A DNA stretch of 64,000 nucleotides from a virus. The DNA lies in IMG/VR virus record IMGVR_UViG_3300034988_000024. One strand, written 5' to 3'. Both the position numbers and the translations under genes were made by a program. Within the stretch, counting starts at the first letter, position 1, and every line of letters begins with the position of its first letter. This document shows positions 4,055-59,867 of the stretch, in pieces. The notes under the pieces are model-generated. The model made no database searches and was not told the origin of the DNA. It saw only the letters and a program-made list of their open reading frames with translations.

Positions 4055-4069
4055 ATAACATATGCTACC
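4055..4069 (+). promoter_or_regulatory. conserved palindromic motif ATAACATATGCTACC, about 45 nt upstream of the lipoprotein gene
   Basis: Member of the GTWRCATATGYTAC family recurring upstream of genes across the window. Confidence 0.5.
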
Positions 4070-4115
4070 TTCGTCAGAGTAAGCGGCTCACCCTGGAGCC
4101 AACGAAGGAGGATGC

Positions 4116-5165
4116 ATGAGGCCCCTTTTAGTGCTGCTACTTTCCTTGCTTTTTTCTGGTTGCGCTGAGGATCGGCGAATCTTTGAGGACCCTGATGGAG
4201 ATATCGATGGCGACGTGGTCACAGACGGCGATGCAGATGGCGACTCTGATGGCGACGGCGATAGCGACTCGGACTCCGATGGCGATGGCGATTCCGATGG
4301 CGATGGTGATGGCGACGGCGATGCGGATGGAGACGGAGACGGAGACGGGGACTGCGAAGAGCTGTGGTGTGTCGAGGAGTGGGTTACGCTCTACACTCGC
4401 GACTTGGCGTTCGAGGTTGGCTCGCCATCCCACCAGCCCGGGCACGAGGACGATGAAACGAGGCATCGGGTTTTTCTCACCTTCAACTTCGAGATTCAGA
4501 CGACCGAGGTGACGCAGTATCAGTTCGAGCGGCGGATGGGTTATGACCCGACAACGGAAGAGGGCTGTGACGGGAGCTGTCCCGTTGGCAGCGTCTCCTG
4601 GAACGAGGCGGCGGCTTACTGCAACGTCTTGTCCGATGAGGAGGGTGTCGAGCGTTGCTACAATTGCACCGGAACAGCACCCGACGTTTCTTGTAGCGTG
4701 AGTGCGACAATCGGCCGCATCGTCGACTGTGAGGGCTTCAGGCTTCCGACAGAGGCCGAATGGGAAGCGGCGGCACGCGGTGGAAATCATGAGCAGTCCA
4801 CCTATAACGGAACACTGACCGAAGAGCAGCTTGGGTGCGATAGTCCGAATGCTGTCTTGGACTCGATTGCGTGGTTCTGCGGGAACTCTGAACGAATGGT
4901 TCAGCCGGTAGCGCAGCTTGTCCCGAACGACTACGGTCTCTATGACATGCTCGGCAACCGTCTTGAGGCAGCCCACGACTGGTATGCCCCGTTCACTGCC
5001 GAAGACGTGACAGACCCAATGGGGCCTGAAACAGGCAGTCAAAGGGTGTACCGTGGCGGCTACGCCTGGGATGAAGGGCGTGGCTCAAGAGCTGCAAAGC
5101 GTTACCGACACGCCCAGGATTCCGACCGGAATCTCGGCTTCCGTCCAGCTCGGACGGCACCTTAG
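4116..5165 (+). CDS. secreted lipoprotein with (DGD)n acidic repeat and FGE-sulfatase (formylglycine-generating-enzyme-like) domain
   Basis: Lipobox LLLSLLFSGC; about 70 aa of DGD/DSD repeats; FGE-sulfatase signatures RLPTEAEWEAAARGG, GLYDMLGN, GFR; SD GAAGGAGG. Confidence 0.8.
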   Translation: MRPLLVLLLSLLFSGCAEDRRIFEDPDGDIDGDVVTDGDADGDSDGDGDSDSDSDGDGDSDGDGDGDGDADGDGDGDGDCEELWCVEEWVTLYTRDLAFEVGSPSHQPGHEDDETRHRVFLTFNFEIQTTEVTQYQFERRMGYDPTTEEGCDGSCPVGSVSWNEAAAYCNVLSDEEGVERCYNCTGTAPDVSCSVSATIGRIVDCEGFRLPTEAEWEAAARGGNHEQSTYNGTLTEEQLGCDSPNAVLDSIAWFCGNSERMVQPVAQLVPNDYGLYDMLGNRLEAAHDWYAPFTAEDVTDPMGPETGSQRVYRGGYAWDEGRGSRAAKRYRHAQDSDRNLGFRPARTAP

Positions 5166-5175
5166 ATCACAGACA

Positions 5176-5211
5176 TGTCACACTGCTCTTAATAGCTAAG
5201 GTCAGTGTGAC
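5176..5211 (+). terminator. hairpin (GTCACACTG/CAGTGTGAC, 9-bp stem) after the lipoprotein gene; weak U-tract
   Basis: Inverted repeat seen directly; T-run poor, so uncertain. Confidence 0.3.
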
Positions 5212-5215
5212 TTCG

Positions 5216-5287
5216 GCCCACGTACCCCAATTGGCAGAGGACCGGCCCGAGGCGCCGGAGGTGGGGGTTCGACTCCCCCCGTGGGCA
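5216..5287 (+). tRNA. tRNA-like gene, anticodon GAG (Leu-type), short variable loop, C33 in anticodon loop; A73
   Basis: Acceptor GCCCACG/CGTGGGC, same D-arm family as 3968, anticodon stem CCGGC/GCCGG loop CCGAGGC, T-arm GGGGG-TTCGACT-CCCCC. Confidence 0.5.
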
Positions 5288-5342
5288 CCGGGTTTATCTC
5301 GGGGTGAGGCGTGGCACGATGTATAATCATGCTGCGTCTTTG

Positions 5343-5429
5343 CGTGAGTGGTGAAATGGTAGACACGCCAGCCTCAGGAGCTGGTGGCCCTTAGAGGCCG
5401 TGGAGGTTCGACTCCTCTCTCACGCACCA
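5343..5429 (+). tRNA. tRNA-Leu (anticodon CAG), canonical type II with long variable arm and encoded CCA
   Basis: Acceptor GCGTGAG/CTCACGC, D-loop GTGAAATGGTAGAC, anticodon stem CCAGC/GCTGG loop CTCAGGA, variable arm TGGCCCTTAGAGGCCG. Confidence 0.75.
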
Positions 5430-5447
5430 GGGTAGAAAGATAGTGTT

Positions 5448-5648
5448 ATGACTTCGGAACGATACGAAAGGGCTGACGGTGAAGGCACGATCAAGCACGG
5501 CCCCTGTGAAAAGTGTGGGGCTCTGAAGTCGAAGGTGACTCACCGATTCGATCACTATGCAGACATGGTTTGCGAGAACGGTCATCACTGGGTGGCTGAC
5601 GTGAGGAGAGAAAATGTCACAAGTGAGTCAGTTTCTGGACACGCTTGA
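5448..5648 (+). CDS. small hypothetical protein (66 aa, CxxC...C)
   Basis: ORF right after tRNA; weak RBS. Confidence 0.3.
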   Translation: MTSERYERADGEGTIKHGPCEKCGALKSKVTHRFDHYADMVCENGHHWVADVRRENVTSESVSGHA

Positions 5649-5910
5649 ATTCGATCAGTGGTTGGATCGGTCCTTTGGCGATACGAGGTCAGTCAAGACC
5701 TGGCTGGCTTCGGGGCACTGCGCCCTAAAAGTACCGATCAATCAGCGCTGTTCTCGTTACGTCCCGGGCCATCGGGTCGCGGCGCTTGCAGCTTTCCTGC
5801 TTCCCTTTGCGACAGGATATTTCGCCTGGCGCCGCTCTGAAGGGAACGCAGGCTGGACAGCTCTCGGAGTCGCCTCTGGCTTCGTCGTCATCGAGGCCGC
5901 TCGTCGTTAG
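5614..5910 (+). CDS. hypothetical small membrane protein
   Basis: Hydrophobic C-terminal stretch AALAAFLLPFATGYFAW; overlaps the previous ORF. Confidence 0.35.
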   Translation: MSQVSQFLDTLEFDQWLDRSFGDTRSVKTWLASGHCALKVPINQRCSRYVPGHRVAALAAFLLPFATGYFAWRRSEGNAGWTALGVASGFVVIEAARR

Positions 5911-5924
5911 ATATATCGTGGTAT

Positions 5925-6007
5925 GCCGCTGTGGTGAAATGGTAGACACGCTTGGTTGAGGGCCAGGTGGGCGAAAGCCCGTGGAGGTTCGACTCCTCTC
6001 GGCGGCA
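5925..6007 (+). tRNA. tRNA-Leu (anticodon GAG), type II with long variable arm
   Basis: Acceptor GCCGCTG/CGGCGGC, anticodon stem CTTGG/CCAGG loop TTGAGGG, variable arm TGGGCGAAAGCCCG, T-arm GGAGG-TTCGACT-CCTCT. Confidence 0.7.
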
Positions 6008-6184
6008 CTAAATGTGGCGGGTGATCATTGTAATAATCCTGGGGATTATTGATAGTGGCTCAGACTACAGTTGTGAAGAGGCGTGTGGGGTGCTCGATGC
6101 TGAGCTGCTCAGGGTTGAGGGATGCTACTGCATCTGCAAGGACCCGCTGCATAAGTTCAGGGTGAGGATCCCAGATTGTCAGAT

Positions 6185-6260
6185 GCGCGTCTACCCTAAC
6201 TGGTAAAGGGACCAGGTTTAAACCCTGGGGATGAGGGTTCGACTCCCTCGGCGCGTACCA
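6185..6260 (+). tRNA. tRNA-like gene, anticodon TAA (Leu-UUR type) but short variable loop; encoded CCA, A73
   Basis: Acceptor GCGCGTC/GGCGCGT, D-loop AACTGGTAAA, anticodon stem CCAGG/CCTGG loop TTTAAAC, T-arm GAGGG-TTCGACT-CCCTC. Confidence 0.55.
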
Positions 6261-6277
6261 AGAAAAAGGGGTGAGGT

Positions 6278-6526
6278 ATGGCGACGAAGAGAGACGACTA
6301 CTACGACAAGACACCGCTGGAGGTGTTGGAGCAGGCCATGTGGCGACCGCACCTGGTATGCACTCGAAAGCTGCTCGGTCGTCATGGGACTCCTGGCGAG
6401 GTCATTGAGGGCTTGAGTGAACCCGCTCGAAAGAAGCTCAGGCAGCTCAAGAGCGACGACATCGCGAATATCCGTCCAGACATCGCAACGATGTTCGTTG
6501 GGACGGTTCCACAGCATTTGCTGTGA
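6278..6526 (+). CDS. hypothetical protein (82 aa)
   Basis: SD AAGGGGTGAGG upstream of ATG. Confidence 0.5.
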   Translation: MATKRDDYYDKTPLEVLEQAMWRPHLVCTRKLLGRHGTPGEVIEGLSEPARKKLRQLKSDDIANIRPDIATMFVGTVPQHLL

Positions 6527-6530
6527 TTTT

Positions 6531-6607
6531 GGCGCCGTAACCCAATTTGGCAGAGGTCCCGCCTCAAAAGCGGGCGGTTGGGGGTTCGATTCCCCCCGGC
6601 GCTACCA
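6531..6607 (+). tRNA. tRNA-like gene, anticodon CAA (Leu-type) but short variable loop; encoded CCA, A73
   Basis: Acceptor GGCGCCG/CGGCGCT, D-loop AATTTGGCA, anticodon stem CCCGC/GCGGG loop CTCAAAA, T-arm GGGGG-TTCGATT-CCCCC. Confidence 0.55.
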
Positions 6608-6608
6608 A

Positions 6609-6690
6609 TGGTAAACATAAACCCCTCTCATGTTTACCGAGCGGGGCCTGGTAAACATAAACCCTGTTTTGGTTTACGGAGAGGCGCCAC
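6609..6690. repeat. repeat array: GGTAAACATAAACCC as a direct repeat (x2), interleaved with inverted copies (ATGTTTACC, GGTTTACGG) at about 20-bp spacing
   Basis: Seen directly between the tRNA and the radical-SAM gene; operator- or iteron-like arrangement. Confidence 0.55.
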
Positions 6691-6717
6691 TGAAACAAAA
6701 AAGGGGAACGTTCGTAA

Positions 6718-13406: not shown

Positions 13407-14135
13407 CTACTGGACCTCTCGGGTCATTGTGGCGTCGAGGAGTCCTGTGACCTCGGCGTAGCTGCTTTTGTCAGACGAGTTTTGCTCGATGCGGTTCATG
13501 GCACCGGTAAACTCCTCGTCGGACCTGATGAGCATGTGGAAGGTCTGACGGGGAGGGATGGCGATCGGGGAGCGTTTCTTCTCTGCAGAAACGACTCTGT
13601 CCGTTCCATCGTTGGCGAAGCCGCCATGGCGCTCGGGCTCAAAGAGCGTGATTCCGTGTCGGTAGACGGGGTATGGAACGCCGTCTCTGTCGGTCTCTAT
13701 TCCGGCTTCGGGATTGATCTTTTTTGCGTCGAAGCTTGCCGGAACATTGCTCATGAGTCGATCGCCGTCTTCGCCAATGACGAAGTGCAAGCTCACACCC
13801 TCGAAGAATTTGTTGTAGTTTGCCGGGTCGGTGAAGGAAGCGTGGAAGCCTACGCGCGAGATCATGCACGTCCTGTCGGCAACGAGCTGACCGCTCAGGC
13901 ACATGTTGGTCCTGAACTTGTCTCCCATGTCGGTCATGAATAGCTTGAGGCTCGGGCGAAACGTTGTTTGTTCAGAAATTCCGACTCCGTCTGGCCTTCT
14001 GTCAGCGATCCAGCCGCTGTAAAGGAGGTAGCCCAGACGCTCAATGACTCCGACGATTCGTGGCAATGCTTCCTCCTGGGGATGGAGAGGAGAATAACAC
14101 GTGCAACATCCTGAGGACAACTGAAAATATTGCAT
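13407..14135 (-). CDS. hypothetical protein (about 243 aa; start trimmed to MQYF), paralog of 12000-13397
   Basis: Paralog alignment sets the start; the longer ORF would overlap the divergent gene. Confidence 0.55.
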   Translation of the reverse strand: MQYFQLSSGCCTCYSPLHPQEEALPRIVGVIERLGYLLYSGWIADRRPDGVGISEQTTFRPSLKLFMTDMGDKFRTNMCLSGQLVADRTCMISRVGFHASFTDPANYNKFFEGVSLHFVIGEDGDRLMSNVPASFDAKKINPEAGIETDRDGVPYPVYRHGITLFEPERHGGFANDGTDRVVSAEKKRSPIAIPPRQTFHMLIRSDEEFTGAMNRIEQNSSDKSSYAEVTGLLDATMTREVQ

Positions 14136-14159
14136 GTGTTTGGTCGTCCGTTGTGGTAG

Positions 14160-14175
14160 GGTTGCATGTGTTATG
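14160..14175 (+). promoter_or_regulatory. motif variant GGTTGCATGTGTTATG overlapping the ATPase start; nearby CCTGAGGAC...AAAATATTGCA element shared with the 16800 region
   Basis: Divergent intergenic region between the paralog pair (-) and the ATPase/ParB pair (+). Confidence 0.45.
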
Positions 14176-14982
14176 TCTGTTGGTGCGCGCAAAGACAAAG
14201 TGAAAGCGATCACCGTTACGATCCCGGAGAGGGTGTACGGTGGAAAGGTGGCTGAAGGCGAGAAGGGGGTGGAAAACCCTATCAAACGGCTAAACTTCTT
14301 CAAGCGTAAGAAAAGGTTCAAAATCGAACCGGCAACGGTGATCACCGGGAACAACGGCATCGGAAAGACGACGCTCATCAATGCGCTCTGTGCAGGGCTC
14401 GGTCTCGACGACGAGTACTTTTCTCGTGAGTCGACAAGAAGCTCGTCTCATGGACATTTCGGAGTCGATCAGGCAGTGAGGACATTCGGACTACTGACTC
14501 TGCCTGAAGAATATGACAGTGTTTATCGGTTCGCCGGAGACGCGTCGCGAAGACGGGCACTCGCTCTCGATACGATGGAGGATCTGGCGATCACGATGGC
14601 GAAGGGGAGCCATGGCGAGATCAATTTGCACAAGTTCCACAGCATGGTGCTCAAACCGTCTCAGAAAGACCTGCTCGCGAACAAGTCGGTCGTCGTCGCA
14701 CTCGATGAGCCTGAGGCTGGTCTGAGCTTGGAAAACGTCTTCCGTTTCATGGGGCTGATCAAGAATGCTTGCGAAACGGCGTGTCAGCTTTCGCTGGTAG
14801 GTCATCGTCTTCTATTCATCGTCTCGACTCAGCACCCGCTCATCTGGCGTGCAGCGCTTGACGGGGCGGCGCTGTGGCTGGACCTTGGTGGATGGGAGAA
14901 AGAAAACCCCTTCAGCATGTTCGATGACCTCATCGGTTCCGAAGATGGCAAAGAAAGAATCAGACTCTATCACCTCACATGA
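14173..14982 (+). CDS. ABC-type/AAA_21-like ATPase
   Basis: Walker A GNNGIGKTT; Walker B/D-loop VVVALDEPEAGLS. Confidence 0.65.
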   Translation: MSVGARKDKVKAITVTIPERVYGGKVAEGEKGVENPIKRLNFFKRKKRFKIEPATVITGNNGIGKTTLINALCAGLGLDDEYFSRESTRSSSHGHFGVDQAVRTFGLLTLPEEYDSVYRFAGDASRRRALALDTMEDLAITMAKGSHGEINLHKFHSMVLKPSQKDLLANKSVVVALDEPEAGLSLENVFRFMGLIKNACETACQLSLVGHRLLFIVSTQHPLIWRAALDGAALWLDLGGWEKENPFSMFDDLIGSEDGKERIRLYHLT

Positions 14983-28331: not shown

Positions 28332-28629
28332 AGTTCTCCTCGGCGAATACTTGAGCCAATTCCTGGTGGTTTCCTGTGAACAGGTCTTGGTAGAGGCGCG
28401 TGAACCGGTAGTCGACGTATGCCTTCTGTGACACGCGCTTCATGATGTTGTGAGCCCGGAGCTTGGCTTCGCCCCGGTTAATTGCTTCTAGCGTCTCTTC
28501 CCTGAAGAGACGCCAAACGCGAGGGTTCTCTTTGTGGAACTTGGCGAAGGCTTCTTCAAGCTCTTGGCCGCTGAGCTGCTTGAGCTTACGCTCCCCAAAC
28601 TCGAATCCGATCTGTTCCTTGTCGTCCAT
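28297..28629 (-). CDS. hypothetical protein (110 aa)
   Basis: ORF. Confidence 0.45.
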   Translation of the reverse strand: MDDKEQIGFEFGERKLKQLSGQELEEAFAKFHKENPRVWRLFREETLEAINRGEAKLRAHNIMKRVSQKAYVDYRFTRLYQDLFTGNHQELAQVFAEENYGDETQGAPQV

Positions 28630-29573
28630 TACTTCTTTCGGCGTTCCGGCATAACGGCCGTAGGTCCCTCGAAAAGCTCTTTTGGCCAGACCTCAATGGC
28701 GTGCTGGCGAGAGCGATCGTAGCGGTTGGTGGCCCACCGGCCGTAGTTGGCGGTGCGCAGCTCTTTGATGAGCAGCTCTCCAAACACCGTTCCTTTCGGG
28801 TTCGCTTGGTCCGCTACCTTCTTTAGTCGCGTCATGGCCGGCGATGGCGCATTGACCTTGTAGTTCCACCACATGGCCATTGCGAGATCATTGATGGGGT
28901 TGTCAGGGAATGGGTTAGGGTTGTTGATCTCGCCGCGGTATGCCAGCTCCTCGACGGTCTGTCGATCCATCTTCCTGCTTCGGTGCCGCTGGCCGAACTT
29001 GATGAGCTGTTCGTGGCCGTACTTGATTTGGATGGGGATGGTCATGGGCATCGCGAAGAGTTGGTGGAAGGCGATTGCCCACTTCTTCGCTTGGTTCCAC
29101 TGCTTGCCGCGGGCCGGAACCTGTCCTCCCATTGGAGTGAAGGTGTCTCGAATGGTCTTGGTCGTAACAGCCTTGCCCGTCTCGATGATGCGGAGCACCC
29201 CGTCGTCGCCCAAGAACCAGCCTTCGTCCTCGAATGGAAGGTAATAGGGCACAGGAACAACGAAGTCGAGGCGTCGGAGCATCTTGAACAGCGTCCCCTG
29301 TTGCGACATCTGGCGCGGGTAGACTGCAACGAGCTGCTCCAGAGCGGCGGTGACGGCTGTTCCGTCGGCCATCATGACCGAGCCCGCCTTGCCTCCGCTC
29401 TCAACCATCGTCGTCAGCCAGAAGGCCCGGTCGAGGTGTGTATCGCCCATCGTGGGGATGGAATCGAAGGCGGGGACGGTTCCTCGGATGACGGGGCCTG
29501 AGTACTTTCCGATAGAGCGCCTCAAAACCTTGGGGACTGGCACATCGACTTCAGCAGGTGTGCGAAACGGCAT
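28629..29573 (-). CDS. hypothetical protein (start trimmed to MPFRTPAEV; SD GAGGGG)
   Basis: ORF; promoter motif about 95 nt upstream on its strand. Confidence 0.55.
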   Translation of the reverse strand: MPFRTPAEVDVPVPKVLRRSIGKYSGPVIRGTVPAFDSIPTMGDTHLDRAFWLTTMVESGGKAGSVMMADGTAVTAALEQLVAVYPRQMSQQGTLFKMLRRLDFVVPVPYYLPFEDEGWFLGDDGVLRIIETGKAVTTKTIRDTFTPMGGQVPARGKQWNQAKKWAIAFHQLFAMPMTIPIQIKYGHEQLIKFGQRHRSRKMDRQTVEELAYRGEINNPNPFPDNPINDLAMAMWWNYKVNAPSPAMTRLKKVADQANPKGTVFGELLIKELRTANYGRWATNRYDRSRQHAIEVWPKELFEGPTAVMPERRKK

Positions 29574-29669: not shown

Positions 29670-29683
29670 GTAGCATATGCTAC
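29670..29683 (-). promoter_or_regulatory. perfect palindrome GTAGCATATGCTAC with TTGACA 16-17 nt upstream on the minus strand
   Basis: Reverse complement reads CTTGACAGGTCAGAGTCGCTTGGGTAGCATATGCTAC. Confidence 0.55.
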
Positions 29684-29712
29684 CCAAGCGACTCTGACCT
29701 GTCAAGGTGGAA

Positions 29713-32603: not shown

Positions 32604-32619
32604 TATCATATGTGTTACG
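32604..32619 (+). promoter_or_regulatory. motif variant TATCATATGTGTTACG upstream of the 32639 gene
   Basis: Same family. Confidence 0.4.
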
Positions 32620-32986: not shown

Positions 32987-33024
32987 TTGACAACTGTTCA
33001 CTACCTGATAGCATGTGTTATACC
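32987..33024 (+). promoter_or_regulatory. TTGACA, 16 nt, then TAGCATGTGTTATACC; upstream of gene 33015
   Basis: Sequence seen directly. Confidence 0.5.
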
Positions 33025-33803: not shown

Positions 33804-33814
33804 GAGTCCTCAAG

Positions 33815-34644: not shown

Positions 34645-35470
34645 CTTCGTTGCCTTCCGTGAAAAGTGGGAGCCCCTCTGTGTCGTTCCCTGGGCTATGG
34701 GAAGAGGCCCCCTGGGATTTGCGGCCCTTGTGCTGCTCTTCTTTTTTGACCCGCCTTTTTCGCGGCTTCTTCTTTTTGACTTCAGGGGGTAGGTCCGACT
34801 TGCTGAGCAGCCTGTAAAGCATGTCGAACGACTCGTCGTTCATCGTCCAGTAGTGAGTCTGTTCAATGGTGCGGCAAAGCCATTCTCCGGGCCTTGCCTT
34901 GAGTCCCATGCCTGGCGTGTGACCGTAGGGTTCACCGCCTTCGGCTCGCTTGGCTTCAAGAAGGTGATTGGTCGATGCAATTCTATAGTAGACGCGCCAC
35001 TCAAACTCGTGCTCGGCGGCGAAGTCCGGATCGCGAGCCGCCTCTATCTTGGCCGGGTCGACGTAGAACATCCCAGGCGTGTAGTCTGCGTAGCGAACCG
35101 TGCGCTTCTGCTCGTAGATCTTCGTCTTCAGGGTGTCCTTGGTCTCAAGCCAGACGTAGGCGACGCCACTCTGTGGGGGACCGTCGAAGTGTGGCCTGAG
35201 GTTCTGTCGCTGGACCTGCTCGTCGTTGAACTCGATGAAGGCTCCGTAATCGCCGATAACAACTCGGACGTATCCGCGAGAGATAACGGTGTCCATTCTG
35301 TTTTTGATGAGGGTATGCGGTGTTCCAATGATTGGAATGCGGAGCTGCTCCTCGTAGTGCGCACGAACGAGCTTCGCCTCCTCCGGGTCAAGAGGAGCGT
35401 AGAAATTCGGCTGCCCCTTCCGCTTCTGGAGAGCGACTTTTTCGAGGACTTTTGAGAGCGTTGGGTCCAT
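34616..35470 (-). CDS. hypothetical protein with Lys-rich C-terminal tail (start trimmed to MDPTLSK)
   Basis: ORF; promoter motif with TTGACT -35 located directly upstream on its strand. Confidence 0.55.
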   Translation of the reverse strand: MDPTLSKVLEKVALQKRKGQPNFYAPLDPEEAKLVRAHYEEQLRIPIIGTPHTLIKNRMDTVISRGYVRVVIGDYGAFIEFNDEQVQRQNLRPHFDGPPQSGVAYVWLETKDTLKTKIYEQKRTVRYADYTPGMFYVDPAKIEAARDPDFAAEHEFEWRVYYRIASTNHLLEAKRAEGGEPYGHTPGMGLKARPGEWLCRTIEQTHYWTMNDESFDMLYRLLSKSDLPPEVKKKKPRKRRVKKEEQHKGRKSQGASSHSPGNDTEGLPLFTEGNEDGARRTEPS

Positions 35471-35477: not shown

Positions 35478-35515
35478 GGGTTGCATATGTTACCCCCGAG
35501 AGGGGGGAAAGTCAA
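35478..35515 (-). promoter_or_regulatory. TTGACT, 17 nt, then TAACATATGCAACCC (minus-strand orientation), driving gene 34616-35470
   Basis: Reverse complement reads TTGACTTTCCCCCCTCTCGGGGGTAACATATGCAACCC. Confidence 0.55.
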
Positions 35516-38360: not shown

Positions 38361-38996
38361 TTAGCGGCTCCTCAGCTCGTCGTTAAGAATCGCCAGGCAT
38401 TCGGGGCAGAGGGTGCTGGAATGAACGCCGATCCGAGTGAGCTTGCGCCAGTCCTCCTTCATCACCCGCATCTGAGTGCAGAGGACGTGAGCGGATTCTT
38501 CGTCCTTGTTTCCGGTGAGCGCGTGGGCCACCACGTTCCTTTCGCCGATGTGCTTTTTTTCTCGGTACCAAGCCCGGTCTTGGAAGCCAACCGTCCTTTT
38601 TCTCTCGGCTTCCAGGGCGCGCAGATGGGAGAGGGTGTCGCGCTCCTTGTTGGTCAGCTCGCCGCGCTCCAGAAATTCTTCAAGCCAAATCGGAAAGCCG
38701 TTTCGGAGGCACATATATTCCAGGGCCTCTCGGAAAATCAGGGCTTCGTCCACTTGTGGATTCGTCCTGAGGACTTCTATGATTCGCATGGCGTCGGTAT
38801 CGAAAGCCGTTCGAGTGCTTTCGCTTGTTTCATCAAACGGTGTTTCTGTAAATTCCTCCCAAAACTTGACGTCGCGGGCTTCGAGCGAGCCGTCGCCGGT
38901 CGTTGGGTGCTTGAGTAGTTGGGAGAGAATGTTGCCCACGACTCCGGTCGCGACGCCGTGGACTATTTGAGACAATTGCTTTCTAAGATTCTCCAT
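38361..38996 (-). CDS. hypothetical protein (211 aa)
   Basis: ORF; C-terminal CPEC. Confidence 0.5.
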   Translation of the reverse strand: MENLRKQLSQIVHGVATGVVGNILSQLLKHPTTGDGSLEARDVKFWEEFTETPFDETSESTRTAFDTDAMRIIEVLRTNPQVDEALIFREALEYMCLRNGFPIWLEEFLERGELTNKERDTLSHLRALEAERKRTVGFQDRAWYREKKHIGERNVVAHALTGNKDEESAHVLCTQMRVMKEDWRKLTRIGVHSSTLCPECLAILNDELRSR

Positions 38997-39399
38997 CCTT
39001 TATCACCTGTTCCGCCTGTGCGATGTATTCCTTGGCCGCTTTGGTGTACTCGTCCCTGCTCTTGCCTTCGCGAGCGAGCTTGCCGATGAGCTTGTGCATG
39101 TTCCCGATGATGTCGTCGGGGAGCGTCTCGACCTTGGCGCCGAGAATCGGGTGCTCAATGCCGAGTTCTCTCCAGATTCCGGCCGTCTTCTTCTCCCTGA
39201 CGGCTTCGAGGGCGAGGGTGTTGCCGATGTTGAATTTGACCAGCTCGTCGAGGGTCATGCCGTACTCGGTCAGGGGGTGTCGTCCGAGCCACGCGCGGTA
39301 GTCGTCGTGAAGCTGCGTCGCCTGCTCCTTGTTTTCGACGCTCGCGACCAGAATTTGAAGGCTGGCGGTTGCGAAATGTTCGGGCTTTTCGTAGGCCAT
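38983..39399 (-). CDS. hypothetical protein, paralog A
   Basis: Shares MAYE..RLHDDY..ELVKF.IG..IWR.LGIEHPILG blocks with 39464-39889. Confidence 0.5.
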   Translation of the reverse strand: MAYEKPEHFATASLQILVASVENKEQATQLHDDYRAWLGRHPLTEYGMTLDELVKFNIGNTLALEAVREKKTAGIWRELGIEHPILGAKVETLPDDIIGNMHKLIGKLAREGKSRDEYTKAAKEYIAQAEQVIKDGES

Positions 39400-39463: not shown

Positions 39464-39889
39464 CTACTCCTGCGACTTCATTGCGTCCTTGACGAAGTCG
39501 AACTCGGACATCTCTTGATGGACGACGTCGCGAGCGGCTTCGATGGCTTTTCTGAAGCCGAGTCCTTTTTTCGTGGCTTCTGAAAACGCCATCCCGGACT
39601 TCATGATGACTGTCGGCGGGACCTCGTAGAGCTTGTCGCCCAGGATGGGGTGCTCGATGCCCATCTTTCGCCAGATCTCGATCTGCTTGGGACCGGCACC
39701 GTAGCCCAGCGCGTAGCCGATGTGGAACTTGACCAGCTCGGGAGCTGTCAGCTCGTGCTCCAGTGTTTGAGTTCCGACGAAATAGAAGTAGTCGTCATGG
39801 AGACGCTGAGCCTCCTCGGCGGTGTGAACTTTGAGGACCAGGCTGTTGATCTCTCCGTCTTTGAATTCCTTGCGTGATTCGTAGGCCAT
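39464..39889 (-). CDS. hypothetical protein, paralog B (start trimmed to MAYESRKEF)
   Basis: Paralog alignment. Confidence 0.5.
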   Translation of the reverse strand: MAYESRKEFKDGEINSLVLKVHTAEEAQRLHDDYFYFVGTQTLEHELTAPELVKFHIGYALGYGAGPKQIEIWRKMGIEHPILGDKLYEVPPTVIMKSGMAFSEATKKGLGFRKAIEAARDVVHQEMSEFDFVKDAMKSQE

Positions 39890-41788: not shown

Positions 41789-41964
41789 TCGTGTTCTCTG
41801 CTCGATGTGATGTTGTGAAGCTCGTTGAATCCAAACACGTACTTGTGTCCACCTCGGGCCATGACCAGTGCGTCCGCGTCGTTGTTGAGCGAGTCGAGGA
41901 TCTCTACGTCGCCAACGACCTCATGCCATGCCCACATGGCTTCAGGGTCTCGCCACTCGATCAT
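41785..41964 (-). CDS. small hypothetical protein
   Basis: ORF 41785-41985; internal ATG at 41964 is ATGA-coupled to the upstream small gene. Confidence 0.35.
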   Translation of the reverse strand: MIEWRDPEAMWAWHEVVGDVEILDSLNNDADALVMARGGHKYVFGFNELHNITSSREHE

Positions 41965-42128
41965 GGCTCGTCCTTGGGCGGGCAAGTGAACTCCTCGTCA
42001 GAGATCTCTTCGAGTACCCAGCGGAGCGCTTCTTCAACGCCCTCCTCGTAAGTCATGCCGCCGTACTTCGTCGACCCAGCGGGAGGTAGTCGGTCGAGCA
42101 CTTCTTCAATTTCGTCTGCAGCTCTCAT
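41961..42128 (-). CDS. small hypothetical protein (55 aa, MRAADEIEEVLDRL...)
   Basis: Not in the track (under 60 aa); ATG lies 9 nt downstream of the promoter motif. Confidence 0.35.
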   Translation of the reverse strand: MRAADEIEEVLDRLPPAGSTKYGGMTYEEGVEEALRWVLEEISDEEFTCPPKDEP

Positions 42129-42137: not shown

Positions 42138-42151
42138 GTAGCATATGCAAC
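42138..42151 (-). promoter_or_regulatory. motif GTAGCATATGCAAC (minus orientation GTTGCATATGCTAC), 9 nt from the ATG
   Basis: Sequence seen directly. Confidence 0.5.
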
Positions 42152-42491: not shown

Positions 42492-42830
42492 GGGGCTGAA
42501 ATCAAGCCGATCGCCGATTTTATCAAGGTGAGAGGCCCTTTGGGGGCACTATGTTTTTATTGCAGAATCACCTTGACCGTTTTTTTACCCATCTTGGGGA
42601 CGCCGGCCGAGCTTAGTGGCGATCGATCGTTTCCAACCGTTCACTGGAAATTTTTATTGCGTAAGGATTCCGATAAGTTGTGAGTCAGCTTGATTTCGGT
42701 TTTATGCCAAAGAGCGCCTAAGTGCCCGAAATCACACGATTCTGTACCCATGATAATCTAGCTTTTCGGGGGTACAGATCGATTTGGGAGATCTGCACCC
42801 TCGATCGATCAGTCAAGCGGATTCATGTTG
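42492..42830. other. about 340-nt noncoding, repeat-rich, lower-GC region: TGGGGGCACT x2 direct plus inverted copies AGTGCCC and GGGGGCAT, TTTTTATTGC x2, and a 9-bp-stem hairpin TCTGTACCC/GGGTACAGA
   Basis: Seen directly; candidate origin, regulatory hub or small RNA locus. Confidence 0.4.
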
Positions 42831-43187
42831 TTGAGATCATTGGGGGCACTGCGCTCTCAGCTTGACATTCTTACGCAAGTACTCACAATGCCCCCTCGTG
42901 AGCGATCCGGGGTAGTGATCGCCAGAGGTGACGATATGATGGGTCAGAGGGGGGCAGCAAGAGAGCTTGAGCCCCAGGAGAGCTGCATTACGCCGCAACC
43001 GGTGGCTGTTACGCCGCAAGAGGCAATTTCTGAACACTTGTCAGTGCATCAGTGCCCTTACTGCCTGAGCAAGCGGACGAATATGGCGATTTGTGGGTGG
43101 ACACACCGCATCATGCAGTGCGATGTCTGCGAACGACAGTGGCTAATCGATCGAAAGGGCGACGTCGTCGCTTTCGACAACGGTTGA
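42825..43187 (+). CDS. zinc-ribbon hypothetical protein
   Basis: CPYC...CGW...CDVC. Confidence 0.4.
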   Translation: MLLRSLGALRSQLDILTQVLTMPPRERSGVVIARGDDMMGQRGAARELEPQESCITPQPVAVTPQEAISEHLSVHQCPYCLSKRTNMAICGWTHRIMQCDVCERQWLIDRKGDVVAFDNG

Positions 43188-43188
43188 G

Positions 43189-53728: not shown

Positions 53729-53729
53729 C

Positions 53730-54762: not shown

Positions 54763-56562
54763 TTACTCGTCGGCCTCGGCCGCAACCTTCTGGTCGCTGG
54801 ATCGCTTGACGGTGATCTCGACCTTGTCTCCGTCCTGAAGACCATCGAGTTGTCCCGCGATGGACTCGCTGAGCGACTGGGCGCTGGACTTTTCCGCCAT
54901 CTCCGGGGTGTCCTCCTGCGCGAACTGCGAGGCGAGGTCAGTCATCGAATCCATCGATGCGATCTCACCGAAGACCGGGAGGAACAGGTCGAGCAGCTCG
55001 TCGCCTGAGTCCTTGGCTTCACCGGTGATGGCTCGGAGGCAGGTGCGCTGCACGAGGTCTGCCTTTGGCACCTTGTCGGAGAAGGCGCTCGACATAAAGT
55101 GGACGAGCGCTGGGATCATGAGTTGCTCGACCTTCTGACCCACCGCTGTCTCAGCGCCTGGGATGTGTTGACCGAGCTTGCTGTGGAAGACGCTGACCAC
55201 TTTCTTGCTCAGGCGTTGTGAGCCCGATATCTTGAGCCCCTCCTGGAAGGCGCTGACGACGCCGGTGCCGGTTTCGAGCGCTGCGTTCTTGATTCTCTCT
55301 GCCATGGTCATCCTCTCTGGATTCGTGGCAGCCTCACGCGCTGCCAACTCTTTCATTCTTTGAGCTTCGAGCTGGTACTGCACCAGCGCGTCGAGCCCGT
55401 GGTAGATATCACCCATTTGGCTGTTCAATTGGCTAATGTTTCCGCCGACATTATTTATCGCTTCGAGAAGCTCTCGGGCGCGCTGCTCGTCCTCCATTCT
55501 CCTTTGGGCGAGCTGCCACTGGTCTGGCTGATAGGGCATCTGCTCTCGGGTCATGCGCAGCTCGCTTGCCACGCTCTCAATGGCTTGAAGAAGCACTGGG
55601 TCCGTCGGTGTCGAGACGAGCTGCGTCTCTGGCTCTGCAATGAGGCCCTGCGCTTCCTGCTCGTCGAGGTTCTTTGCCTGGGCGAGCTGGTTAGTTATTT
55701 CCCAGAGCGTCCTATCGACGTCATTATTGAGAACCGCTTCATTGGTTCTCCATGTTGATACGCCAACGCTCCATTGGAAGCCCTGAATATACTCCTGCCA
55801 CCGATTTTCGAGCGAGATGCTGGAGATGGTGTTGTCGATATCGATGAAGTGTCGCAGAAGCTGTTGCTTGGTAAAGAATGGACGTCTCGCGTCGTTGTGA
55901 TCTTCCAGTTCTGCTGTCGAAAGGAAGCGGTGCAGACCTTCGAGAAATTCGACTCTTGAAATCTTTCGCGAGAAGGGCATCTTATTTTCGTCCTCCTCCT
56001 TTTTTGCGTCGGTGAGGAGTAGCGGATCTCCGGAAATCTTGACCCGCATGCTGTCGAGAAAAACGTTTCGGCCTGTACCTTTCGGTGAAGGCCCTCGAAC
56101 GGTGACGTCGTACACGCCGCCGCCGTGGTGCTTCTTGATGAAGTCAGCGTCGATGGGGTGGTCATAGGTCGCAAGAAACCCAGCAACCTGCTGGCCCTTC
56201 CATGTCTGGGGCTGACATCGCTTGACCTGTATCCCAGTGAAGTCCCTGTGAGCCTTCAGCATGTCACCAATAGTCACGATCTTTGGCGGTCCTCCAGGTC
56301 GGAAAGACGACTTTTGAGCCACTCGCGGCGCGCTTCTTTGGGAGGCGAGGTCTCGGTCGAGTAGCGACAGGTCAGTTGGCTGCTTCACGGAAAGGTCGTT
56401 GTCCCAGTGGCGCAGATAGACGGAGTCACGCGTCCTTGGGACCTCTGGTGAGGTTTCCAGGCGCTGCCAGGTGGCGTCACGCGATGCGCCTACGTCGTCG
56501 GACTGAGGGCCGAAGACGCCGTCGTCATCGTCGTCGCCGAATATCCCGTCTTGGCGACCCAT
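54763..56562 (-). CDS. large hypothetical protein (about 599 aa; start trimmed to MGRQDGIF), coiled-coil-rich C-terminal half
   Basis: ORF; a partial promoter-motif copy (AATATGTAAC) lies just upstream. Confidence 0.55.
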   Translation of the reverse strand: MGRQDGIFGDDDDDGVFGPQSDDVGASRDATWQRLETSPEVPRTRDSVYLRHWDNDLSVKQPTDLSLLDRDLASQRSAPRVAQKSSFRPGGPPKIVTIGDMLKAHRDFTGIQVKRCQPQTWKGQQVAGFLATYDHPIDADFIKKHHGGGVYDVTVRGPSPKGTGRNVFLDSMRVKISGDPLLLTDAKKEEDENKMPFSRKISRVEFLEGLHRFLSTAELEDHNDARRPFFTKQQLLRHFIDIDNTISSISLENRWQEYIQGFQWSVGVSTWRTNEAVLNNDVDRTLWEITNQLAQAKNLDEQEAQGLIAEPETQLVSTPTDPVLLQAIESVASELRMTREQMPYQPDQWQLAQRRMEDEQRARELLEAINNVGGNISQLNSQMGDIYHGLDALVQYQLEAQRMKELAAREAATNPERMTMAERIKNAALETGTGVVSAFQEGLKISGSQRLSKKVVSVFHSKLGQHIPGAETAVGQKVEQLMIPALVHFMSSAFSDKVPKADLVQRTCLRAITGEAKDSGDELLDLFLPVFGEIASMDSMTDLASQFAQEDTPEMAEKSSAQSLSESIAGQLDGLQDGDKVEITVKRSSDQKVAAEADE

Positions 56563-56721
56563 GGTCGTTACATATTCCCTCGATGGCAGAGAAGACGAGC
56601 AGAGGCCATACCTGTCGAATGGATCGGAGATTAGTCCATCGATCCAAAAGACGATATGCTCGTCCCGTCCTGTGCACTCCCTGCCATCCACATTGACACC
56701 TGAGCCATTATATGGAAGAAA

Positions 56722-56739
56722 GGTAGCATATGCAACATC
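56722..56739 (+). promoter_or_regulatory. motif GGTAGCATATGCAACATC, 22 nt upstream of gene 56762
   Basis: Same family. Confidence 0.5.
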
Positions 56740-56761
56740 ATAAAAGGGGGCTCCGGAAAAA

Positions 56762-57073
56762 ATGAAAGCAACCCACGTCAAGCAGGACATCACACCGAGC
56801 GATCTCCATCTATCTCACGGCATGAAAGTCACCATCGACCGCATCATCGCCAAGACGCATGGTGTCCATCTGGTCATCTATTTCTGGGACGGCCGCATGT
56901 GCGTCTTCGAGACGACGAGCGAAGAGCTGAGCCAGATGGGGTTCTACAACGCTGAAGGTGTCGAGGTGTCGAAGGGGTTGGTTGAGAGTGCCTACTCTAT
57001 GGCAATGGCTCAGAGAACCTTCGATCGGCACGCCGAGACGTTCAAGAAGCTGACAGGGCAGATCGAGGGCTGA
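56762..57073 (+). CDS. hypothetical protein (103 aa)
   Basis: ORF with an upstream promoter motif. Confidence 0.5.
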   Translation: MKATHVKQDITPSDLHLSHGMKVTIDRIIAKTHGVHLVIYFWDGRMCVFETTSEELSQMGFYNAEGVEVSKGLVESAYSMAMAQRTFDRHAETFKKLTGQIEG

Positions 57074-57810: not shown

Positions 57811-58024
57811 CGGTGCTCCTGTCGGGTGCGCTGAACTGGACGTCGATCATACCGACCTCGATGGCGGAAAACAAAGCACGCTGAAGGTGACGGATGTCGT
57901 TCTTGACGGCGAGAAGCTGCATCTCTTTCCAGTTGAGTGTCTTGCTCTGTTCCCGAAGAAGCCCTGCGAGCTTCATCGCTTCGAGTAGGTGTGGCCGTCC
58001 TCCTGGTGGGGCGATTGCGGCCAT
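57797..58024 (-). CDS. small hypothetical protein
   Basis: ORF. Confidence 0.35.
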   Translation of the reverse strand: MAAIAPPGGRPHLLEAMKLAGLLREQSKTLNWKEMQLLAVKNDIRHLQRALFSAIEVGMIDVQFSAPDRSTDGEG

Positions 58025-58311
58025 TAGACGAACTCGGAGTCTTTACGAGCCTGCATTTCCAGGTCGATCACCGTCGCTAGGACTGGAGCAATCGCTGTAT
58101 CCAGCCCGCAATGCCCCTTCAGGATCGTCATCATCTTGAGCGCGTCACCGATGAGCGTCTTTTCATTGGGCGTAGTGATCTGCCATTGGCCGGTCGGTAA
58201 GAACTTGATTCCCATTCGACGCTGTTTCTGGTGAATGATCAGGAACTCGCCAGGAGCGGTCCTCTCGATTTCAACGCCTGACTGGATAATGTCGGCTTTG
58301 AGATTGCTCAC
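58024..58311 (-). CDS. small hypothetical protein
   Basis: ORF. Confidence 0.35.
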   Translation of the reverse strand: MSNLKADIIQSGVEIERTAPGEFLIIHQKQRRMGIKFLPTGQWQITTPNEKTLIGDALKMMTILKGHCGLDTAIAPVLATVIDLEMQARKDSEFV

Positions 58312-58320
58312 GTTCTCCTC

Positions 58321-58800
58321 CTACAGGTCGTAGACAACGGTGCGGACGCCCTTGCCTACTAAGGTGGTGTTGATGATGGGCTCGATTTCGTCCCATGTGC
58401 CGCCAGCGAGTCCGCAGCCTATCCGGGGCATGTGAACCGACGCCCCGAGGCTTTTCGCGTGCTCGCAAACCTTATCCAAGCACTCGGCGAGTGCTCGGTA
58501 TCGAATACGGCGTTTTCCTCGGCCGACGCCGTGCTGTGCGATCATGTTTGCGACAGTGATCGTCGCCGATATGTTGACGAACTGCGTCTGCCCCAGCTCA
58601 AAGGGGATGTCGCGAGACTCAACACCCCGTCGCCAGCGCCGGTAGAACATCTCCGGATGCAGCCACCGGCCCGAAAGCGCGCCGGTGAACCCGGCGCCCC
58701 AGCCGCCGATGTCGTTGCAAATGTGGGCGATGATGATCTGCTCGTGCTCACCCTGCTTTGGGTTCTTGACGAGATCCCTCTTGACGTACTCAACTGGCAT
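58321..58800 (-). CDS. macro-domain protein (ADP-ribose binding or processing)
   Basis: IIIAHICNDIGGWGAGFTGALS and HMPRIGCGLAGGTWDEI match macro-domain motifs; SD AAGGGGGGAG; start trimmed to MPVEYVK. Confidence 0.65.
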   Translation of the reverse strand: MPVEYVKRDLVKNPKQGEHEQIIIAHICNDIGGWGAGFTGALSGRWLHPEMFYRRWRRGVESRDIPFELGQTQFVNISATITVANMIAQHGVGRGKRRIRYRALAECLDKVCEHAKSLGASVHMPRIGCGLAGGTWDEIEPIINTTLVGKGVRTVVYDL

Positions 58801-58813
58801 GTTTCTCCCCCCT

Positions 58814-59158
58814 TCAGCTTTCTCCGATAACCTTGTCGCCGATGATAGTTCCCCTCCAGCCATCTTCCGGATCGGACTCCTCGATGGCCTTGAGCAGCTC
58901 CGTCTTGGAGACGATGGGGCCGAAGTCGACGGTAAAGGTCATCGGCATGGCAGGTTCGAGATTTTCGACGATCATCGAAGCCGTGTGGCTGTGAACGGTC
59001 TCAGCCAGGATGAAGGGATTGAGCCCCACCTCCGCCATTTCCTTGAGCAGCTCCTTATAGAACGTCTCTACCGCGGCGGACACGGCCTTCTGTTCGATGA
59101 GGCAAGCAAGTTCATGCGGCGTCACTGGTCGCCGCCTTTCTTGCGTCGTACAGCTCAA
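58814..59158 (-). CDS. hypothetical protein
   Basis: ORF; start uncertain. Confidence 0.35.
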   Translation of the reverse strand: MSCTTQERRRPVTPHELACLIEQKAVSAAVETFYKELLKEMAEVGLNPFILAETVHSHTASMIVENLEPAMPMTFTVDFGPIVSKTELLKAIEESDPEDGWRGTIIGDKVIGES

Positions 59159-59807
59159 CGAATTTTCGGAGAGCGGCCCTGGCGTAGTAGAGGCGCGGAG
59201 CCGGCACGATGCCGATGTCGGAGATTAGCTCGCTCTCGTCACCAACGTCAGCTTCACAGAGGTCGTCGTACAGCGTGTTCTTGACGAAGTACCAGTCTTC
59301 CCACCCCTGCTGCATGGCTTCGAGAGCGTTGCGCCACGCAGCAAGCTCCTTGTCCTCTTTCAGAGCTTCCGCGATGTTGCCTGCCTCGTCTGTGATCTCG
59401 CTGGTGCGTTCCTTGACTCGCTCTTGCAGCTCCCAGATCGCGACCTCGTCGTCGAAGGTGTTGTTGACGCCGGCTACGCCACTCGTGTCCATGCCGATGT
59501 TGCACTTCTCCTGGGCGTATTGGTCTGGGGCTTTGGCGATCCAGCGCGCGGCAGCGATGGGGTCGTCCTCTCCCTTCGGCGGGTGGTAGACCTTGAAGAG
59601 GCAGGTATCGCCGTCGCCGTGGACCAAGATGCCACCGGTAACGATGATGATCTCGGTCCAGTGAAAGCCTTCCCAGCCCTTGGCTGTTTTTCGCTGGATG
59701 AGCCAGCGGCGGTCGCCTTCTCGTTTTATTCGGTGATCCTTGTAGGCGTCGAGAGCGAGCGCCTCCAGTTGTTCCTTGTACTTTTTCAGAGCGTTTTCAG
59801 TGGTCAT
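59112..59807 (-). CDS. hypothetical protein (231 aa)
   Basis: ORF. Confidence 0.5.
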   Translation of the reverse strand: MTTENALKKYKEQLEALALDAYKDHRIKREGDRRWLIQRKTAKGWEGFHWTEIIIVTGGILVHGDGDTCLFKVYHPPKGEDDPIAAARWIAKAPDQYAQEKCNIGMDTSGVAGVNNTFDDEVAIWELQERVKERTSEITDEAGNIAEALKEDKELAAWRNALEAMQQGWEDWYFVKNTLYDDLCEADVGDESELISDIGIVPAPRLYYARAALRKFVELYDARKAATSDAA

Positions 59808-59851
59808 GTAGGCCCCTAGTGATAAACAATTGCTTTCGGTTGCGCCCGTAA

Positions 59852-59867
59852 AGTAACATATGCTACC
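59852..59867 (+). promoter_or_regulatory. motif AGTAACATATGCTACC, 17 nt upstream of gene 59885
   Basis: Same family. Confidence 0.5.

Follow-up and report, generated by a model that had tools for sequence, protein, structure and literature searches.

A palindromic box in the intergenic DNA of a viral window

The DNA considered here is a stretch of 64,000 nucleotides from the virus record IMGVR_UViG_3300034988_000024 (the window, 64 kb at its full length), and the element in question is a 14-bp palindromic motif, hereafter the box, which recurs between the genes of the window and shares its core with operators of the manganese-binding transcriptional regulator MntR. The window has a G+C content of ~57% and carries 13 tRNA genes, together with genes recognised as encoding an amidase, a DNA polymerase exonuclease, SSB, DNA methyltransferases, a NUDIX protein, radical SAM enzymes and a vault-like protein of 984 amino acids (aa); most of its proteins have no family match. 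Two JGI metagenome contigs, of 113 and 124 kb, and several Logan contigs match it at 99-100% identity. The flanks of the window and the JGI gene calls were taken from near-identical contigs, and the gene map combines our own calls with the JGI calls.

The motif was counted in the window and in dinucleotide-preserving shuffles. The string GTWRCATATGYTAC occurs exactly at six sites (18073, 29670, 35480, 42138, 56723 and 59853), against 0.00 expected in the shuffles; when up to two mismatches are allowed, 4055, 14161, 16780 and 16860 join them to give 10 sites, the corresponding scan returning 18 matches, both strands counted, against 0.41 expected. A palindrome-symmetrised position weight matrix (PWM) adds a strong site at 33008 (ATAGCATGTGTTAT) and weaker ones at 14094, 21273 and 32605. 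In total, the window holds 11 strong and three weak boxes, about one box per 5 kb, and the PWM scan of the flanks yielded one strong box (67246) and two weak ones. The claim of an earlier note on this DNA, that the motif is recurrent and enriched upstream of genes, is thus borne out by these counts, and the positions that it gave are correct within 1-2 nt; the variant at 32604 and the partial copy at 56565 that it also listed are both weak.

Intergenic DNA makes up 5.9 kb (9.2%) of the window and holds every box, as had been claimed (P ~4e-12 for the 11 strong sites), with box 35480 running into the stop codon of the upstream gene and box 14161 into a start codon. In particular, all five divergent intergenic regions of the window, which are places where promoters must exist, carry a box (Table 1). 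The start codon, previously put at 9-60 nt from the motif, in fact overlaps it at the closest (ATG at motif position 13) and lies 96 nt away at the farthest. The hexamer TTGACA is rarer than expected in the window (14 copies versus 27.7), and six of these copies have a box within 30 nt. Outside the boxes, CATATG is neither avoided nor enriched (16 copies versus 13.9 expected), and because of this expected frequency the possibility that the box is a restriction or methylation target was dropped.

Conservation of the box in a jumbo-phage family

No relatives were found among cultured phages by megablast of 13 kb or by tblastn of the 256-aa protein encoded at 33033-33803, nor in IMG/VR by protein scan, and a pattern scan of IMG/VR returned 28 single matches on unrelated contigs, about chance level. 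By tblastn, the vault-like protein matches only huge-phage metagenome records, at 26-31% identity. The large open reading frames (ORFs; 1056, 845, 599, 465 and 378 aa) gave nothing useful in Pfam, PHROGs and PDB sequence searches, in which no RNA polymerase, sigma factor or virion genes came to light. Homologues of the 256-aa protein, at 52-76% identity, lie on contigs of 252-292 kb, and the pieces fetched from these contigs are syntenic with the window, at 35-70% aa identity. From these sequences, the window reads as part of an uncultured jumbo-phage family, the parts read amounting to ~80 kb for this phage and ~83 kb for four jumbo relatives with boxes (~96 kb with the short loci L014-L016).

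The box is kept in five or six related phages, at orthologous promoters of L014 and L015 (~70% aa identity) and of L024, L025, L027 and L028 (35-70%, on the contigs of 250-290 kb). Both box and -35 are retained, with diverged flanks, before the vault-like gene, the 314-aa gene 28629-29573, the 256-aa gene and the 284-aa gene 34616-35470. The layout of the vault-like-gene promoter (18055..18086) recurs at the orthologous loci L014 and L015, and orthologues of site 29670 are present in L024, L025, L027 and L028. In an alignment of five phages upstream of the 256-aa gene, the mean column identity is 55%, and no variation is seen in TTGACA, in a portion of the spacer and in TAGCATGTG..A; all five have an identical -35 and box at the promoter at 32987..33021. 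More distant relatives are devoid of the box and use plain TTGAnn-N17-TAnnnT promoters; they are L021 and L022, with vault proteins at 61% and 55% identity, and L026 (67% G+C), with a 256-aa protein at 56%.

Promoter anatomy of the box sites

For the analysis of the surroundings of the box, we compiled a catalogue of 33 boxes, which come from the window and its flanks and from the relatives L014, L015, L016, L024, L025, L027 and L028. The main layout, seen in 16 oriented sites, is cTTGACn, 15-17 nt, [G/A]TAGCAT[A/G]TG[C/T][T/A]A[C/T], which corresponds to TTGACA-N16-18-TAGCAT. A -35 (TTGACA with at most one mismatch) stands 15-17 nt upstream of the box in 17 cases in the catalogue, against 0.91 in shuffles, whose maximum is 5, and a perfect TTGACA or TTGACT lies beside six window boxes; the hexamers that the earlier note had pointed out (at 16852, 18055 and 32987, and on the minus strand at 29700-29705 and 35510-35515) are indeed present. 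Furthermore, a scan of the window with a generic sigma-70 consensus places box sites among its top scorers (TTGACA-17-TAGCAT, TTGACA-16-TAGCAT, TTGACT-17-TAACAT and TTGACA-18-TATGTT), and these sites have a -35 close to TTGACA and a spacer of 16-18 bp to a TAnnnT -10, as is typical of sigma-70-type promoters.

At least seven sites in the standard register have the first base of the start codon at motif position 13, 15 or 16, which is also the predicted +1, given that sigma-70-type promoters start transcription 6-8 nt past the -10, and the corresponding mRNAs are predicted to be leaderless or to have a very short leader. The leaders of the other box genes are 9-96 nt long, and a strong Shine-Dalgarno sequence is present in some of them. 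The position of the box relative to the -35 is not fixed. In a second register, the box lies 12 nt past the -35 and the -10 is TATGYT (positions 7-12); the vault-protein genes of the window, L014 and L015 have this arrangement, as does L016, whose ATG falls at position 20, the predicted start. In a third, the box occupies the spacer (window 16860 and L027 13911), 2-6 nt from the -35, and the start codon is found 5-6 nt past a hexamer downstream of the box; in further cases the box lies over or just upstream of the -35 (window 16780 and 56723, both with respect to the minus strand, L024 13020 and L028 13042). Whatever the register, the ATG is where the -35/-10 pair places the predicted start, while the offset of the palindrome from the -35 varies (2, 6, 12 or 15-17 nt, or upstream of the -35). 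It follows that the placement of RNA polymerase (RNAP) obeys the -35/-10 pair while the palindrome slides, which argues for an operator laid over sigma-70-type promoters and not for a new promoter class.

Within the 16 oriented sites, there is no variation at T2, A3, C5, A6, T7, T9, G10 and A13, 13 of the sites have a G at position 8, and the sequence of the left half (TAGCAT) is kept more strictly than that of the right. Nonetheless, the right half mirrors the left though it has no role in sigma-70 recognition, so that it behaves like part of an operator for a dimeric protein, and the conservation of the dyad exceeds what a promoter needs. The orientation of the motif with the downstream gene, which had been described as constant, is mostly undefined for a palindrome, and only the CATGTG variant is oriented. 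With regard to the two readings initially proposed for the motif, the promoter core is upheld (TAGCAT or TATGYT being the -10 of sigma-70-type promoters) and so is the palindromic operator, given the dyad symmetry and the floating register, but the extended -10 geometry is not.

Other promoter types were also considered. An extended -10 (TRTGnTAY, or TGn with a hexamer downstream of the motif) was rejected, because the -35 would sit 23-27 nt away. Promoters read by a phage RNAP or sigma factor (T7-like, non-virion RNAP of phiKZ/AR9, or T4 gp55 type) would be expected to show an asymmetric element at a fixed distance from the start site and no host -35, whereas the box is palindromic, tied to TTGACA and found in at least four registers. 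Late promoters of the phiKZ/AR9 type have the form AACA...TATG, and this candidate was dropped because of the association with TTGACA and the symmetry.

It is also conceivable that the motif is a promoter and nothing else, that is, a conserved block of -10, discriminator and start read by the host housekeeping sigma or by a phage sigma factor or RNAP, whose symmetry would be incidental or due to bidirectional firing. The strong association with the -35, the leaderless geometry, the stricter left half, the T always found at position 7 and the single boxes serving two divergent genes at 59853 and 32605 would all fit such an arrangement. We consider it improbable, since T9, G10, A13 and the mirrored R/Y and W pairs of the right half are superfluous for sigma-70, and since the registers of the box relative to the -35 include the spacer and the region upstream of the -35. 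Moreover, the distant relatives manage with plain TTGACn-N17-TAnnnT promoters without box, no sigma or RNAP gene occurs among the Pfam-annotated gene calls over ~80 kb of the phage, and a second dyad of the presumed host promoters, presented in the next section, has the same half-sites with another centre and cannot be a -10.

Identity with MntR-linked promoters of Phycisphaerae

One genome per prokaryotic species was scanned with the pattern TTGACN{15,17}RTAGCATRTGYWAY, and at least 120 stretches matched. Among the 120 matches listed, mostly scattered singletons, 12 are from Planctomycetota, mostly Phycisphaerae, and the perfect box GTAGCATATGCTAC, with TTGAC 15-16 nt upstream, is found at no fewer than seven Phycisphaerae loci among these matches. 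The identical TTGAC-N16-GTAGCATATGCTAC stands in at least eight Phycisphaerae metagenome-assembled genomes (MAGs), and their loci (L065, L068, L091, L093, L097, L107, L109 and L140) are chromosomal, orthologous and in a manganese (Mn)-uptake context. On one side of the site, L065, L068, L093, L097 and L140 have a divergently transcribed regulator gene, and on the other an operon encoding a ZnuA-family protein, an ABC ATPase and an ABC-3 permease. L109 has ZnuA immediately after the site, and L091 and L107 have a gene for an outer-membrane-protein-like product downstream of it, with a regulator gene nearby in L091. These mnt promoters present the same layout as those of the phage, with TTGAC-N16-TAGCAT and the ATG at motif position 15 or 17, and are likewise leaderless or nearly so. 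In six of the eight loci the site is followed, after 4 nt, by the second dyad, TGTAGCCATTGCTACA, which is degenerate in L107 and missing from L109.

The regulator encoded at these loci matches Pfam Fe_dep_repress and Fe_dep_repr_C (DtxR family; E 6.8e-11 and 3e-11) and passes the NCBIfam equivalog NF008273 (manganese-binding transcriptional regulator MntR, of the E. coli type) with 160.3 bits against a cut-off of 153; among its best 120 homologues, the closest are annotated as MntR and come from Phycisphaerales. For the operon, Pfam reports ZnuA (E 8.7e-71), ABC_tran and ABC-3. In enterobacteria, MntR sites follow the consensus AACATAGCnnnnGCTATGTT (PMC1698941), whose core, TAGC-N4-GCTA, is also that of the phage box. 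In the window, this core is perfect at 29670, has at most one mismatch in total at 18073, 33008, 42138, 56723, 59853 and 4055, and has two or more at the other sites, namely 14161, 16780 and 35480 (one per half-site) and 16860 (three). The motif had been taken as specific to the viral element, a view that no longer holds, since the identical 14-mer, with the same -35 spacing, stands at MntR-linked Mn-uptake promoters of Phycisphaerae.

The perfect box also fits exactly the pattern GTA-N8-TAC, as GTAGCATATGCTAC makes evident, and could in principle be a site of the NtcA type (CRP/FNR family) for a global activator of the host. In NtcA-activated promoters, the site is centred near -41.5 and replaces the -35, with a -10 some 22 nt further down. 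The box instead overlaps the -10 and the start site, with its own TTGACA upstream, its inner eight bases are conserved as much as the outer ones, and the genomic matches, among those listed, are at Planctomycetota mntR and Mn-transporter loci and not in cyanobacteria. Hence, even though cyanophage genomes do contain 1-16 NtcA sites (PMC3037559), we regard this interpretation as very improbable.

Two further occurrences are reported here as separate observations. In L085, a Gemmatimonadota MAG contig (JAJCZW010000090) that is unrelated and encodes unknown proteins, a block of ~90 bp with the perfect GTAGCATATGCTAC is present twice (2330-2520 and 3540-3760), 1.2 kb apart, with a TTGAC -35 just upstream of the second copy only; this duplicated block may be a mobile promoter cassette or belong to another element using the operator. 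A literature search with the exact box string returned mainly papers on EBNA1 of Epstein-Barr virus, which were set aside as coincidence. The EBNA1 consensus binding site is GGGTAGCATATGCTACCC, and the likeness, unrelated as it is, shows that the sequence of the box suits a dimeric protein.

Candidate regulators of the box

A tblastn search that covered ~80 kb of this phage and every fetched locus of its relatives, the box-less ones included, detected no DtxR-family homologue, and none of the best 120 MntR homologues lies on a contig sized like the phage contigs. A search with Rfam gave only tRNAs and no Mn riboswitch. The factor for RNAP that the element had been supposed to encode finds no counterpart in the Pfam calls discussed above. 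As for a DNA-binding regulator, the only candidate seen is the 256-aa protein, whose C terminus has a weak winged-helix match (MarR_2, E 0.012); an orthologue of the gene neighbouring it has a weak HTH_17 match. L026, a relative without a box anywhere in 20.8 kb, the region before its orthologue of the 256-aa-protein gene included, retains the recognition helix of this protein (PHQTASARINEL) essentially intact, and this weakens the case for the protein as reader of the box.

The palindrome could nonetheless be the operator of a phage-encoded dimeric regulator, for example, a repressor of early promoters that defines a temporal class, either unrelated to MntR or a captured MntR paralogue, the match with the host mnt promoters being then a coincidence or a trace of origin. 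Such a regulator would account for the dyad symmetry and the floating register, as well as for the features in which the phage box departs from that of the host, that is, the constraint on the AT(A/G)T centre and the lack of conservation of the outer T and A. A conserved box stands directly before the operon of the 256-aa protein with its MarR_2 match, the HTH_17 match belongs to an orthologue of the neighbouring gene, and most of each 250-290 kb genome lies beyond the parts read. On the other side are the outcome of the search for DtxR-family genes, the helix conserved in the box-less L026 and the 14/14 identity and the like -35 spacing shared with the host operator, which are hard to ascribe to chance. 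We therefore deem a phage-encoded regulator rather unlikely.

A proposed host-RNAP promoter with an embedded MntR operator

We lean towards the interpretation that the box promoters are sigma-70-type promoters of the host RNAP with an embedded MntR operator, the 14-mer being a composite regulatory element. The left half of the 14-mer would serve as the -10 (TAGCAT, or TATGYT in the second register), read by the host RNAP together with a TTGACA -35, and transcription would start at about the last motif bases to give leaderless or very short-leader mRNAs. The half-sites (G/A)TAGC and GCTA(C/T) would at the same time form an MntR-type (DtxR-family) operator with the core TAGC-N4-GCTA, on which an Mn2+-loaded MntR dimer would cover the -10 and the start site and block the polymerase. 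At least 11-14 promoters in 64 kb, as well as the orthologous promoters of the relatives, would in this way be coupled to the Mn2+ status of the host. As an alternative outcome, the number of boxes multiplied by that of the genome copies could titrate MntR, and Mn import by the host could be de-repressed. Both the binding of MntR to the phage boxes and its physiological outcome are proposed here from sequence. The MntR acting on the phage would be that of the host, no DtxR-family gene having been found in ~80 kb of the phage or in the fetched loci of its relatives, and the host would probably be a planctomycete of the Phycisphaerae type.

It is possible to hypothesize, more tentatively, that a jumbo-phage family apparently infecting Phycisphaerae has modelled its main class of host-RNAP promoters on the Mn-uptake promoter of the host, operator included, so that MntR-Mn2+ of the host would gate early and middle expression, or the operators, hundreds to thousands of them per infected cell, would act as a sponge that draws MntR off the chromosome and forces Mn import for the phage, or both.

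Several points weigh against the interpretation of the box as an MntR operator. The AT(A/G)T at its centre shows constraint also in boxes that do not provide a -10, and the window has no excess of generic TAGC-N4-GCTA with other centres (13 versus 10.3 expected), which indicates a constraint on the centre, too, that recognition by MntR alone does not account for. Most window boxes have one mismatch per half-site (TAAC or TTGC; GTTA or GCAA). The outer bases of the 16-mer, T...A in Phycisphaerae, are not kept in the phage, where a T precedes the 14-mer in 1/16 sites and an A follows it in 8/16. In Mn-replete cells, a lytic phage with a repressor operator on most of its recognisable promoters would seem to work against itself. 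With respect to the host, the motif is the sole ground for the assignment, the nearest cellular homologues of the vault-like protein are mostly from Polyangia, and the taxonomic picture is that of the 120 matches listed, so that other taxa may share the site. Finally, a phage-encoded regulator could lie beyond the ~80 kb and ~96 kb that were read.

Individual sites and neighbouring features

The sites of the window are listed in Table 1, together with other features found between or beside them.

Table 1. Box sites of the window, with the promoter elements and genes next to them, and other local features
Feature	Position	Strand	Elements and context
tRNA array	779-6607		12 genes (3 Arg, 2 Met, 1 Pro, 6 Leu)
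Box ATAACATATGCTAC	4055..4068	+	Right after tRNA-Leu (3968-4042); no good -35; 47 nt upstream of FGE-sulfatase-like gene 4116-5165
Hairpin-forming unit GGTAAACATAAACCC...GTTTACC	6608-6717		Two tandem copies, between the last tRNA-Leu and a radical-SAM gene
Weak box GTTGCACGTGTTAT	14094..14107	-	Divergent region 14067-14172; upstream of minus-strand gene 13407-14066
Box GTTGCATGTGTTAT	14161..14174	+	Motif position 13 is the ATG of gene 14173-14982 (AAA_23 ATPase); leaderless candidate
Separate tRNA	15716-15792	-	Anticodon UUA; predicted ochre suppressor
Box GTAACATGTGTTAT	16780..16793	undefined	Divergent region 16554-16885; 7 nt upstream of minus-strand promoter TTGACA(16772-16767)-N17-CATGAT
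Box-in-spacer promoter	16852..16885	+	TTGACA(16852-16857)-gg-GTTGCATATGTGAT(16860-16873)-TAAATC-6 nt-ATG(16886); gene 16886-18022
Promoter TTGACA-N18-TATGTT	18055..18086	+	Box GTAGCATATGTTAC at 18073-18086, 12 nt past -35; major-vault-protein-like gene 18141-21095
Box-less TTGACG-N18-TAAGAT site	21105		Upstream of hairpin 21226-21257
Strong terminator-like hairpin	21226-21257		12 pairs, 8 G-C, then T-run; after the vault-like gene, immediately before weak box 21273
Weak box ATGACATGTGCAAT	21273..21301	+	Itself the -35 of ATGACA-N17-TATCAT; upstream of glycosyltransferase operon
Promoter TTGACA(29705-29700)-N17-TAGCAT	29670..29705	-	Perfect box GTAGCATATGCTAC at 29670-29683; gene 28629-29573
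Degenerate variant (T)ATCATATGTGTTAC	32605..32618	undefined	45-nt divergent region 32594-32638
Promoter TTGACA-N16-TAGCAT	32987..33021	+	Box ATAGCATGTGTTAT at 33008-33021; operon 33033-34300 (256-aa winged-helix protein 33033-33803 and 161-aa protein)
Promoter TTGACT(35515-35510)-N17-TAACAT	35480..35515	-	Box at 35480-35493 (GTAACATATGCAAC on the minus strand); ATG 9 nt downstream; gene 34616-35470, then SSB
Adjacent paralogues	38983-39399, 39464-39889		37% aa identity; tandem duplication
Box GTTGCATATGCTAC	42138..42151	-	9 nt before ATG of gene 41961-42128, first of radical-SAM operon; no recognisable -35
Stretch without called main-strand gene	42492-43188		697 nt; promoter-like TTGACA-N16-CACAAT at 42862
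Possible ORF	42825-43187	+	CxxC...CxxC zinc-ribbon-like motif
Box	56723..56736	undefined	Divergent region 56563-56761; plus strand, 25 nt upstream of gene 56762-57073; minus strand, overlaps -35 position of TATAAT hexamer upstream of gene 54763-56562
Single box	59853..59866	undefined	77-nt divergent region 59808-59884, genes 59112-59807 (-) and 59885-60472 (+); no good -35

The vault-like protein contains the shoulder and repeat domains of the major vault protein, and its homologues at 45-53% identity include proteins of Polyangia (Myxococcota), Planctomycetes and other bacteria; huge-phage metagenome records contain it, too. Despite the predicted ochre-suppressor tRNA, recoding is not evident, given that TAA ends 23 of the 101 called genes. 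In the relatives, a gene for an IS605-type TnpB (OrfB_IS605/Cas12f-like; L024 2633-3976) adjoins a degenerate box, and a cluster of six ankyrin-repeat genes is present in L025 (12288-19242).

A second over-represented string, the 12-mer GTCCTSAGGATG with the palindromic core TCCTSAGGA, has 14 matches in the window against 0.92 expected (7827, 14107 on the minus strand, 16808, 32949 and 52543, plus nine with one mismatch), and occurs also in the flanks, L014, L024, L027 and L028. It is found in both coding and intergenic DNA; some copies encode a C-terminal ...SP(Q/E)DE, and three (16808, 18006 and 32949) lie 26-37 nt upstream of the -35 of a box promoter.

Comparison with known systems

The enterobacterial MntR box (PMC1698941) has the same dyad core, TAGC-N4-GCTA, and in the candidate hosts the site is found at Mn-uptake promoters, by mntR and over the core promoter, as expected for a repressor. 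The outer bases, on the other hand, are CA/TG in enterics (the outer consensus there being AACA/TGTT) and TG/CA in Phycisphaerae and show no conservation in the phage, the centre is fixed as AT(A/G)T in the phage, and the phage has about one site per 5 kb instead of a few per genome. In the tro operon of Treponema, a dyad operator of TroR (DtxR family) stands at a sigma-70-like promoter of a ZnuA-family/ABC-3 operon, and its position varies by species, overlapping the promoter in one and lying 10 bp off in the other (PMC2628430). This variability recalls the floating register of the phage boxes, even though the tro operator has another sequence and is a chromosomal single copy.

Dispersed sites of this kind are also known in phages with a repressor of their own, since the C1 operators of P1, the conserved inverted repeats of phiC31 and the stoperators of cluster A mycobacteriophages are read by a phage-encoded repressor. 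The likeness consists in some 12 or more near-identical short sites across the genome, at or near promoters. However, no phage-encoded repressor was found here in the parts read, and, to our knowledge, the P1, phiC31 and stoperator sites have no counterpart in host regulons.

The use of host regulators by phages has precedents. The tox gene of corynephages is under the control of the host DtxR, and the tox operator overlaps the tox promoter (PMC5784534, PMC9693595); as predicted here, a phage-borne promoter carries the operator of a metal-dependent repressor of the host DtxR family. That case, however, concerns one toxin cargo gene of a temperate phage, whereas the boxes stand at many promoters, of housekeeping, replication-type and unknown genes, and are family-wide in jumbo phages. 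Cyanophage genomes contain sites of the host regulators NtcA (1-16 per genome, PMC3037559) and PhoB (pho boxes, PMC10976474), so that, as proposed for the window, several phage promoters have sites of a regulator that reports the environmental status of the host. Different from the box, NtcA and PhoB are activators acting upstream of the core promoter, while the box would be the site of a repressor-type metal sensor, fused with the -10; here, moreover, the metal would be Mn and the apparent host phylum is Planctomycetota. A literature search on MntR together with phage promoters found nothing relevant.

If the MntR interpretation is true, infection by these phages would be gated by the Mn homeostasis of the host, or would manipulate it. 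It would also provide a host prediction, Phycisphaerae, for a phage family without cultured member, in a phylum with almost no known phages, and this prediction would come from the mimicry of a regulatory site and not from CRISPR spacers or tRNAs. The known cases of borrowed host regulators are activators (NtcA and PhoB) or involve a single cargo gene (DtxR at the diphtheria toxin gene), and a repressor site within the -10 of many promoters would follow a different logic. Thus, although the borrowing of a host regulator is not in itself new, the fusion of the operator of a repressor-type metal sensor with the -10, at many promoters and throughout a jumbo-phage family that appears to infect Planctomycetota, would be so.

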